From the IMG/VR virus record IMGVR_UViG_2565956719_000002: DNA of 64,000 nt; one strand, given 5' to 3'. Below are positions 32,960-34,996 of this stretch, one piece after another. The position numbers were made by a program, and so were the translations under genes. The notes under the pieces are model-generated. The model searched no databases, was not told where the DNA came from, and saw only the letters and a program-made list of their open reading frames with translations. The stretch comes from a virus (taxonomy: Duplodnaviria > Heunggongvirae > Uroviricota > Caudoviricetes). How positions within the stretch are numbered: the first letter of the stretch is position 1; each line of letters starts with the position of its first letter.

Positions 32960-32987
32960 ATTACACTAATAAATTTATTAGAGCAAT
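32960..32987. promoter_or_regulatory. bipartite palindromic C1 operator: ATTACACTAATAAATTT (plus) overlapping perfect ATTGCTCTAATAAATTT (minus)
   Basis: 17/17 consensus copy at 32971-32987 (minus) overlapping a 15/17 copy at 32960-32976 (plus). Confidence 0.6.
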
Positions 32988-34996
32988 ATACCTAAGACGT
33001 CATGAGCAACACCTCGAGTGTCCCCCTTACAAGACACAGAACGTCTGGCAAAAAGAGGTTCCACTCTGAAGCCATTGTCATGATAAAGCTCTCTGATGTT
33101 TGGCGCGCCACTGTTAGTAATGAGAACCTTTGCACCTCGGCGATGAGCATCCGTCAACAGAGACACCAGGCGTTTTTGCTCTTCAAACTTAAAGTCATGA
33201 CCGGAATAGTTCGTGAATCCCTCTGTATTTGGAAGCGGTTCATACGGCGGATCACAGAAGATGATATCTCCTTCTCCGGCAGCTTCAATCACCGCAGCAA
33301 AATCACCACATACAAACTCAGAACGCCCTTCCGCACCGAGGAAGGCTTCCATCTCCTGTAATGGGAAATACGGAGTTTTATACTTCCCATAACCGACATT
33401 GAACTCACCGGCCTGGTTGTAACGCGTCAATCCGTTAAAACAATGTCGGTTCAGGAACAAAAACGCCGCTGCGCGATGTAAATCATCATAGACTTGTTTG
33501 TTAAACGCATTCCGTACTGCCAGGTATCCTTCCTGTGTGTTGTAGTCCTGGAAAAACCGATGCGCCAGTGTGATAAGTGAATGCGCCTCGCGTTGCAGAG
33601 TCTTGTAAAAGTTAATCAGGTCAGCATTCACATCATTTAGCAGATTTTCCTGGTATCCGGCATTCGTGAAGACAGCTCCGCCACCGACAAAAGGTTCGAT
33701 CAGGCGCTTCCCTTCTGGCAAATAGCGAAAGATTTGTTCCAGAACACCAAATTTTCCACCAGCCCATTTGAATATGGACCGTTCGAATTCTGCCGCTGGT
33801 TTAACTTTTCGCTCTTTTGTTTCATTCCCTTCATTCTGCCGACATGCAGCCTTGGTAATCCGATCGCCAATCCAGCGCATTACTGGTATCGCCATACTAT
33901 TACCGATCGCTTTGTAACGCGGTCCGTCAGCTGCAAGCATCGCGGCCTCTTCTTCGTTCAAATCAGGATAGTTTTTGCGAAGGTATGCCAGTTCATCTGA
34001 AGAAACTTTTTTACGCTTTTCCGTAGGGATCAATGTATGTCCATCAGGAAAACCTTGTAGCCTTTCACATTCGACAGGGGTAAGACGGCGCATTCTACCG
34101 TCGCCGAGCAATACAATTGGTGCTTCATGGTTACATGTCAAAGTTGGTGCCGAATTATCGGTTTTTATCTCAGCCCCTCCTTGCCCATGTGCCATGGCAA
34201 CTATGTTTGTATCATCGCAAGATCTGATAGCGATGTTTGAAGTATATCTGGTAGTTTCCTTCCCCTCGCCTCTGCTCGGCGCAATATTCCGGCGCACGCC
34301 TTCGAACTCAAAAAGTACCGTTGCGGGATCGAGGTCTGTTCGAGCACTTGCGACAACAAACACGCGTCGGCGTCGTTGTGCCACTCCGAAGTATTGGGCA
34401 TCAAAGATTCTCCAGGCCACTTTTCGCTGCGGTCCATAAATACAACCACACTGCGGCCACTTTGGAGCATGGCAACCGGTTTTGACATCCCACCGCCAGA
34501 ACGCGTTACTTTTTCCTGATTCAGGTCGATCACCTGGTTCGAATGGCGCATCTTCTCCAGCCAATCCGGCAAGGAAACATCCGAAGGCGTTATCTGCCGA
34601 TGACAAGACTCCTGGGACATTTTCCCAGACGATAACTGCTGGTTTGAGAAATGACTCAGCCCGTTTGTCGTCAATTGCATTTGCAAGCTCCACATACTTT
34701 AAAGTTAGCGCGCCACGCTCATCATCAAGCCCACCACGTAATCCCGCGATACTGAATGCCTGACAAGGTGTTCCCCCGACGAGCACATCAGGGAATTCGA
34801 TTTCCCCTGCCAGGACTTTTTTGGCAAGTTTTGTCATGTCGCCAAGATTGGCGACATGGGGCCAACGGTGCGCAAGAACGGCAGATGGAAAAGACTCGAT
34901 TTCTGCAAACCACACCGGACGCATACCCAACGGTTCCCAGGCAATACTCGCGGCTTCAATTCCACTGCAAACAGATCCATAGCACAGCTCTTTCAC
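32978..34996 (-). CDS. dmt: bifunctional DNA methyltransferase: N-terminal C5-cytosine MTase fused to C-terminal Dam-like N6-adenine MTase
   Basis: [11 protein letters not shown] and ENVPG motifs in the N-terminal half; KWAGGK and DPPY in the C-terminal half. Confidence 0.85.

Follow-up and report, generated by a model that had tools for sequence, protein, structure and literature searches.

Here, we describe the DNA methyltransferase gene dmt and its surroundings in a stretch of 64,000 nucleotides (nt) of viral DNA, IMG/VR record IMGVR_UViG_2565956719_000002 (Caudoviricetes), which is referred to at its full length as the window. The gene encodes a protein of 672 amino acids (aa). It follows uhr and hrdC in an operon; past it, no further coding gene precedes the pair of Oban operators and a hairpin that resembles a terminator. 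A preliminary description, made from the sequence, had recognised in this open reading frame (ORF) a cytosine-C5 methyltransferase half and a Dam-like adenine methyltransferase half, and this is borne out by the ORF list as well as by the Pfam and NCBIfam matches. The motifs PCQ and ENV, placed there in the N-terminal half, and KWAGGK and DPPY, placed in the C-terminal half, were all found in the translation, and both the motif positions and the domain matches give the order C5 then N6. The features of the locus are collected in Table 1. ORFs on the opposite strand inside dmt (e.g. 33975..34439 and 34756..35385, both +) are regarded as shadows of the long ORF.

Table 1. Features of the dmt locus, the pac site and the intein of sister alleles. 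Nucleotide positions refer to the window unless another record is named, and aa positions to the 672-aa protein; pLDDT, predicted local distance difference test.
Feature	Position	Strand	Basis and remarks
dmt	32978..34996	-	ORF, 672 aa; the start codon, GTG, shares GTGA with the hrdC stop; GGAGAGG Shine-Dalgarno sequence upstream
C5-cytosine methyltransferase domain (aa 1-385)	33842..34996	-	PF00145/TIGR00675; motifs I, IV, VI, VIII, IX and X in canonical order
Motif I, VCSGIEA	aa 9-15	-	translation
Motif IV, PCQ	aa 77-79, nt 34760-34768	-	translation
Motif VI, ENV	aa 125-127, nt 34616-34624	-	translation
Motif VIII, QRRRRV	aa 207-212	-	translation
Target-recognition cassette (aa 241-302), single module	34091..34276	-	alignment with P1 and P7; only segment differing wholesale from P1 Dmt
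Motif IX	aa 303-319	-	translation
Motif X, GNSMA	aa 365-369	-	translation
Inter-domain linker (aa 386-406)	33779..33841	-	between two Pfam/PDB-matched regions; pLDDT <50 at aa 387-406
Dam-family (D12, alpha-class) N6-adenine methyltransferase domain (aa 407-672)	32981..33778	-	PF02086, TIGR00571 and 2g1p match
KWAGGK	aa 410-415, nt 33752-33769	-	translation
DPPY	aa 582-585, nt 33242-33253	-	translation
C1 operator Odmt (formerly Op68)	36247..36263	-	ATTGCTCTAATAAATAT; identical to annotated P1 Odmt
Sigma-70 promoter Pdmt, -35 TTGTTT, -10 TACCAT, overlapping the operator	36218..36247	-	same sequence as the Pdmt annotated in P1 NC_005856
uhr, 94 aa, first gene of the operon	35891..36175	-	ORF; agrees with P1 uhr and P7 upf64.0 in position and length
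hrdC, 301-aa RdgC homologue	34993..35898	-	PF04381, E 6e-98; annotated hrdC/rdgC in P1, P7 and plasmids
Oban a/b (formerly Op72), divalent C1 operator belonging to the tRNA/ban operon downstream	32960..32987	.	operator search, P1/P7 annotation
Terminator-like hairpin followed by a T run	32778..32797	-	terminator scan; ~180 nt past the dmt stop
pac site in pacA	5228..5386	.	seven GATC in TGATCA/G hexamers, 3 + 4, with a ~90 bp spacer; predicted substrate of the Dam domain
Intein of sister alleles	L005:532-1554		Salmonella plasmid pZ1323SSL0064-3; also in L003, phage RCS47

The earlier view of dmt as the last gene of an operator-controlled operon that includes a homologue of RdgC holds: a C1 operator is present, the genes overlap, and dmt is followed by Oban and the hairpin. 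Odmt deviates at 1 position from ATTGCTCTAATAAATTT, the query of the operator search, and this pattern search detected 12 C1-operator-like sites in the window against 0.25 expected. The assignment of Pdmt rests on identity to annotated P1 features; a generic promoter scan did not call it, and the site count of that scan was no higher than in shuffled sequences. The first gene, uhr, has no Pfam match. The coding sequence of hrdC overlaps those of uhr and dmt by 8 nt and 4 nt, respectively. At the distal end, operator a of Oban contains the final codons of dmt together with the stop codon, and Oban was matched with 0 mismatches at 32971-32987 (-) and with 2 mismatches at 32960-32976 (+). The hairpin falls at the annotated dicF-like region of P1 and is suggestive only, since the region has no more such sites than shuffled sequences do.

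The gene is dmt of a P1-like phage-plasmid of E. coli, in the allelic form first seen in P7. It shows 100% nt identity to a gene of the E. coli plasmid pLH85-a-A (NZ_CP100487, protein WP_023352075.1), 97.6% identity to several isolates named 'phage P1' and 95.3% identity to 'dam' of phage P7. The window itself is a P1-like plasmid-prophage, with the traits of such phage-plasmids: the C1-operator-like sites, pacA with pac, and the P1 tRNA genes past dmt. The order of elements is that of P1 and P7, namely Odmt/Pdmt, uhr, hrdC and dmt with Oban over its 3′ end, and tRNA-Asn and tRNA-Thr downstream. The 'Dam' protein of P7 (AAQ07538.1, AF503408; 672 aa) equals the Dmt of the window in length, domain order and its single recognition cassette, with 95% aa identity; the remaining ~5% are scattered substitutions, none of them structural. 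The P7 operon likewise consists of Op(dam), upf64.0, hrdC and dam, and there, too, the stop codon overlaps Op(ban). For P1 Dmt (YP_006537.1 / AAQ14041.1; 754 aa), gene, locus, operator and promoter are as in the window and the nt identity outside the cassette is ~97%. The aa identity to this reference protein is 90%, the loss being confined to the cassette. Fusion architecture, operon and pac role are already known from P1, the fusion and the operon being annotated in P7 as well, and the exact protein is already in RefSeq.

In the PLSDB database, dmt is carried by 498 plasmids, nearly all of which are non-mobilizable, ~90-100 kb in size and from Escherichia and Salmonella; these carriers are P1-like phage-plasmids. 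The distant phage-plasmids pRHB39-C21_3 and pPSS-10_3 (L007 and L008) retain rdgC-dmt, with similarity at the DNA level in the C5 part alone (nt 16-1130) and a divergent Dam part; in pRHB39-C21_3, glnS (glutaminyl-tRNA synthetase) lies directly downstream of dmt. The names of homologues in the protein database are generic only ('Dam family...', 'DNA cytosine methyltransferase'), apart from partial Dmt entries (P0029, P0035) named 'multidrug DMT transporter permease', an evident error derived from the gene symbol dmt.

The N-terminal half of the protein belongs to the C5-cytosine methyltransferases. PF00145 was matched in three stretches from aa 8 (E 9e-36, 124.3 bits against a cut-off of 22) and TIGR00675 (dcm) with 116.8 bits (cut-off 100.65), and the N-terminal 390 aa match M.HhaI (E 1e-10). 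Enzymes of the M.HhaI / M.HaeIII type have the same motif order, I-IV-VI-VIII-(target-recognition domain)-IX-X, and their PCQ, ENV, QxRxR and GNS motifs are present in Dmt. Unlike these enzymes, Dmt reads CSGIEA in motif I, carries an insert of ~35 aa between motifs IX and X, and is joined, as an orphan enzyme, to another methylase. In addition, the distance from ENV to QRRRR amounts to ~80 aa as compared with ~40 aa in M.HhaI. Many genomes of Enterobacter and Klebsiella encode the same C5 module as a free-standing protein, and it is also found fused to two unrelated N6 methylases, PF02086 and PF05869; therefore, the fusion of a C5 with an N6-adenine methylase arose at least twice. In the PF05869 type, present in other enterobacterial prophages (P0046, P0094, P0108, P0120), a domain named 'phage N-6-adenine-methyltransferase' is joined C-terminally to the C5 family.

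As to the cytosine target, which the preliminary description had left open, the phage records say only 'perhaps at C5 cytosine', and no target was found named in the literature or among the homologues searched. The alignment against P1 Dmt that had been proposed there was carried out and gave two collinear, near-identical proteins, except for the segment between RRNIAP (aa 235-240 in the window Dmt) and RRLTP (aa 303-307). Between these anchors, P1 Dmt has 144 aa and the window Dmt an unrelated, unalignable segment of 62 aa, which is of the P7 type and not that of reference P1; C5 methylases have their target-recognition region at precisely this place. As the two cassettes differ in this way, the cytosine target of the window allele is probably not that of P1 Dmt. 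Among the 498 PLSDB plasmids, the cassette of the window type occurs in 184 and the P1 type in 257; others have 3-5 modules.

The recognition region has a modular build. Across the alleles and 60 homologues its length spans 62 to 317 aa, with 197 aa in the SJ46 allele (807 aa), 252 aa in an 862-aa allele and 236 aa in another, and it is composed of recurring modules of 30-45 aa, each with an x-[PHF]-T-[LIV] core, which are combined differently from one protein to the next. The window allele represents the minimal state with one module, whereas the 807-aa allele of SJ46, the 862-aa allele and the stand-alone homologues contain 3-5. Such a layout suggests different cytosine targets in different P1-like lineages. 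The enzymes of SPR, phi3T, rho11s and H2 are multispecific C5 methyltransferases of Bacillus phages, and the tandem modules of the Dmt family between motifs VIII and IX, which vary in combination from phage to phage, recall their layout, as does the orphan nature of these phage enzymes; the window Dmt differs from them in having one module, so it would be monospecific. A likeness by eye of HGQGG...APTLT to the recognition loops of M.HhaI in the spacing from Q to TL was given no support by HMMER, and no conclusion is drawn from it.

Sister alleles of dmt differ in a further respect. Those encoding 1013 aa and 1095 aa contain an intein of 341 aa (Hint and LAGLIDADG; PF13403, PF14528) at the catalytic Cys of PCQ, with the junctions GGTP/CFTAGH...VVHN/CQAFS (slashes mark the points of insertion). 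The window allele is intein-free and has the empty site at 34760-34768. The intein was found in 133 PLSDB plasmids, in 128 of them at >=99% identity, and this high identity suggests that it spread by recent homing. Since the intein sits exactly at the catalytic Cys and splits PCQ, the mature protein must be restored by splicing, which we take as a sign of a working C5 enzyme. No paper describing an intein in dmt was found in the literature searched, and for cytosine target, cassette variation and intein together the search returned only statements that Dmt methylates GATC.

The modules and the intein can be combined in the proposal that the C5 half is a cassette-shuffling platform akin to the Bacillus phage methylases, in which lineages of P1-like phage-plasmids of Enterobacteriaceae would swap modules of 30-45 aa between the fixed anchors RRNIAP and RRLTP, methylate different sets of cytosine sites and evade different sets of host restriction enzymes. 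The LAGLIDADG intein would be spreading through the same gene at the catalytic Cys. We put forward this proposal tentatively, at somewhat less than even odds; neither such a platform nor the spread of the intein was found described in the literature searched.

The C-terminal half is a member of the Dam family. PF02086 matches aa 411-643 (E 2e-56, 192 bits) and TIGR00571 (dam) gives 247 bits against a cut-off of 114.85. The C-terminal 281 aa of Dmt can be aligned over the full length with E. coli Dam (structure 2g1p; E 2e-57). The score for the equivalog of E. coli Dam, NF008152, is below the cut-off (241.7 against 441 bits), which marks the domain as a family member and not as the host enzyme. 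Both proteins have the order S-adenosylmethionine site, recognition region and DPPY, the K of KWAGGK, DPPY itself and the NGLxRYN loop. In contrast to E. coli Dam, the window domain is part of a fusion protein, and the loop that reads YNGLCRYN...NVPFGRY in E. coli Dam is altered in it by the replacements Y to F, P to G and R to K. From the Dam domain of P1 Dmt, which the P1 record and the literature describe as methylating GATC, it differs at 2 residues, and this near-identity suggests that the C-terminal domain methylates the adenine of GATC.

A candidate substrate is encoded in the window. The pac site lies in a region that is pacA in P1-like phages and is the densest GATC cluster of the window, with 7 GATC in 170 bp. 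Packaging of P1 needs Dam methylation at pac, and dmt is essential in dam- hosts (review, 2025; PMC12707154); the requirement for methylation of the pac GATC sites and the role of dmt as supplier in dam- hosts are also stated elsewhere (PMC11437467). The suggestion of the preliminary description that Dmt probably methylates the GATC hexamers of pac is thus supported by the presence of pac in the window, by the 2-residue difference from P1 and by the literature. The mechanism of the adenine half is established for P1 and is transferred to the window allele by near-identity.

From these observations a course of events can be proposed. In the lysogen, C1 bound to Odmt, which overlaps Pdmt, would hold uhr, hrdC and dmt off, and upon induction or infection the three genes would be co-transcribed, both steps being read from identity to P1 features. 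Given the overlaps of stop and start codons, translational coupling of the genes is probable. As is known for P1, the Dam-type domain would then methylate the GATC adenines until the seven pac hexamers are fully methylated, the pacase could cut the methylated pac and start headful packaging, and the phage would be independent of host Dam. A single short recognition module, located between motifs VIII and IX, would set the specificity of the C5 domain. This half would most likely methylate one short cytosine-containing site on phage DNA in lytic growth and may in this way shield the DNA of the progeny against a Type II restriction enzyme of the host infected next. For the whole of this explanation, i.e. 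a P7-type dmt in a C1-controlled operon with methylation of the pac GATC sites and protection of a cytosine site, we estimate a probability of about 0.85.

Several observations on the C5 half weigh against this explanation. Motif I is CSGIEA, in which Glu replaces the second Gly of FxGxG, while the first Gly aligns with G20 of M.HhaI. C5 activity of any P1-family Dmt stands as 'perhaps' in the records of P1 (dmt, 754 aa; 'bifunctional DNA methyltransferase', acting on N6 adenine in GATC 'and perhaps at C5 cytosine') and P7 (dam; 'hypothetical bifunctional DNA methyltransferase', N6 adenine 'and perhaps C5 cytosine'), and no paper showing the activity was found. The recognition module has no significant similarity to solved methyltransferases, the best methylase matches having E 0.3-0.9 and covering motif IX only. 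In an AlphaFold model computed from an alignment of 60 sequences (mean pLDDT 63.8, predicted TM-score 0.50), whose quality did not suffice for fold searches, the recognition segment (aa 231-293) has a pLDDT <50. Finally, an anti-restriction role of the C5 half would follow by analogy only.

Alternatively, the C5 half could be catalytically dead or vestigial, serving as an appendage for DNA binding or scaffolding, with GATC adenine methylation as the sole activity. In favour of this, no source reached documents C5 activity, the RefSeq name is that of a Dam-family enzyme only, motif I has the Glu in place of the second Gly, and the recognition segment, at 62 aa, is very short and not confidently modelled. 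As to motif I, E14 is nearly invariant across the homologues, so that the deviation, though atypical, represents a family-wide variant and not a lesion, and it is probably compatible with function. The catalytic Cys of PCQ, ENV, QRRRR and GNS are intact; C78, Q79, E125, N126, V127, Q207, R211, G365, N366 and S367 are invariant in the 60 homologues down to ~50% identity. In comparison with other alleles, the ratio of non-synonymous to synonymous substitution rates (dN/dS) is 0.13-0.31 for the C5 core, which speaks for purifying selection, and 0.05-0.11 for the Dam domain, both from small counts. Furthermore, the occurrence of the C5 module alone as well as fused to PF02086 and PF05869 is the pattern expected of an autonomous enzyme, and the confinement of cassette turnover to the recognition segment implies selection on specificity. 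Because the catalytic residues are invariant, dN/dS is low and the module occurs both alone and with an unrelated partner, we regard it as likely, by roughly two chances in three, that the C5 half is an active enzyme; a dead C5 half is improbable.

Slightly less probable still is the reading that the main role of Dmt is not packaging but anti-restriction or epigenetic control of the plasmid, acting on its origin, on gene regulation or in protection against enzymes of the MboI/DpnII type. It could draw on a second GATC cluster in the window (five AGATCC heptamers and a GGATC), which lies by iterons and upstream of a RepB-type initiator gene, on the four Dam sites that P7 annotates in the cre control region, and on dmt being non-essential in a dam+ host, as in a CRISPR interference screen in which the gene was dispensable on a normal host (PMC10695390). 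However, with the operon repressed by C1 in the lysogen, the enzyme should be absent at the stage when the plasmid origin operates, a stage at which host Dam does the work, and the cited experiments support no function other than the pac requirement. The proposed roles are, moreover, compatible with an enzyme that methylates pac and do not mutually exclude it.

The least probable alternative, separate products with a Dam-only enzyme made from M353, M368 or M373 by way of an internal Lpa-dependent late promoter and timed for packaging, can appeal to the late promoter predicted inside the P7 gene ('LPdam2', gene nt 989-1007; identical 36 nt in the window), to its -22 box AAGTTTCTT with 1 mismatch to the AAGT(G/T)ACTT of six annotated P7 late promoters, and to in-frame Met codons between this site and the Dam domain, but its -10 TGAACT is without the position-2 A of all six reference promoters (TANNNT), LPdam2 is a prediction only and none is annotated there in P1, the internal start has neither a Shine-Dalgarno sequence nor a separate ORF call, and linker and domain order are kept in fusions at 57-63% identity (P0034, P0109), which argues for the fusion as the functional unit.

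With the P7-type bifunctional enzyme as the preferred explanation, the points of remaining interest are the cytosine target, the polymorphism of the cassette and the intein in sister alleles, none of which is special to the window. Natural P1-like plasmids have at least three or four cassette types, and results from laboratory P1 with its 754-aa allele should not be carried over to the 672-aa allele. If the cassette platform is true, the window allele is its one-module state, with a target unlike that of laboratory P1. Knowledge of the 5-methylcytosine targets would help to explain the host range of P1-like phage-plasmids, which are carriers of mcr-1 and of extended-spectrum beta-lactamases, and also bears on the use of P1 to transduce strains that have Type II or methyl-dependent restriction systems. 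P1 is a standard laboratory tool, and the cytosine specificity of P1-family Dmt is of some value, too.

Some further features of the window were noted. The region 38515-38720, which contains the second GATC cluster (six GATC in ~60 bp) followed by five iterons (TTGACT.T.CGCGATTT...), is an oriR-like origin, and the cluster would be a further substrate of Dam or Dmt. Just downstream, at ~38794-39678 (+), lies the gene of an initiator of the RepB family; the replicon of the window differs from the IncY RepA of reference P1. Between the tRNA-Asn/Thr pair and tRNA-Met(CAT)/ban, where reference P1 has plp, upl and tciABC, the window carries a gene for an SPFH/Band-7 lipoprotein (30375-31202, -; PF01145, E 1e-30) and a small membrane ORF (31183-31419, -); this position is a variable accessory slot. 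The divergent neighbour of the operon (36345-36629, +), corresponding to P1 upfC, gave a weak PAAR match of 26.0 bits against the Pfam cut-off of 27 bits, and PAAR is also the RefSeq label of the P1 upfC protein.

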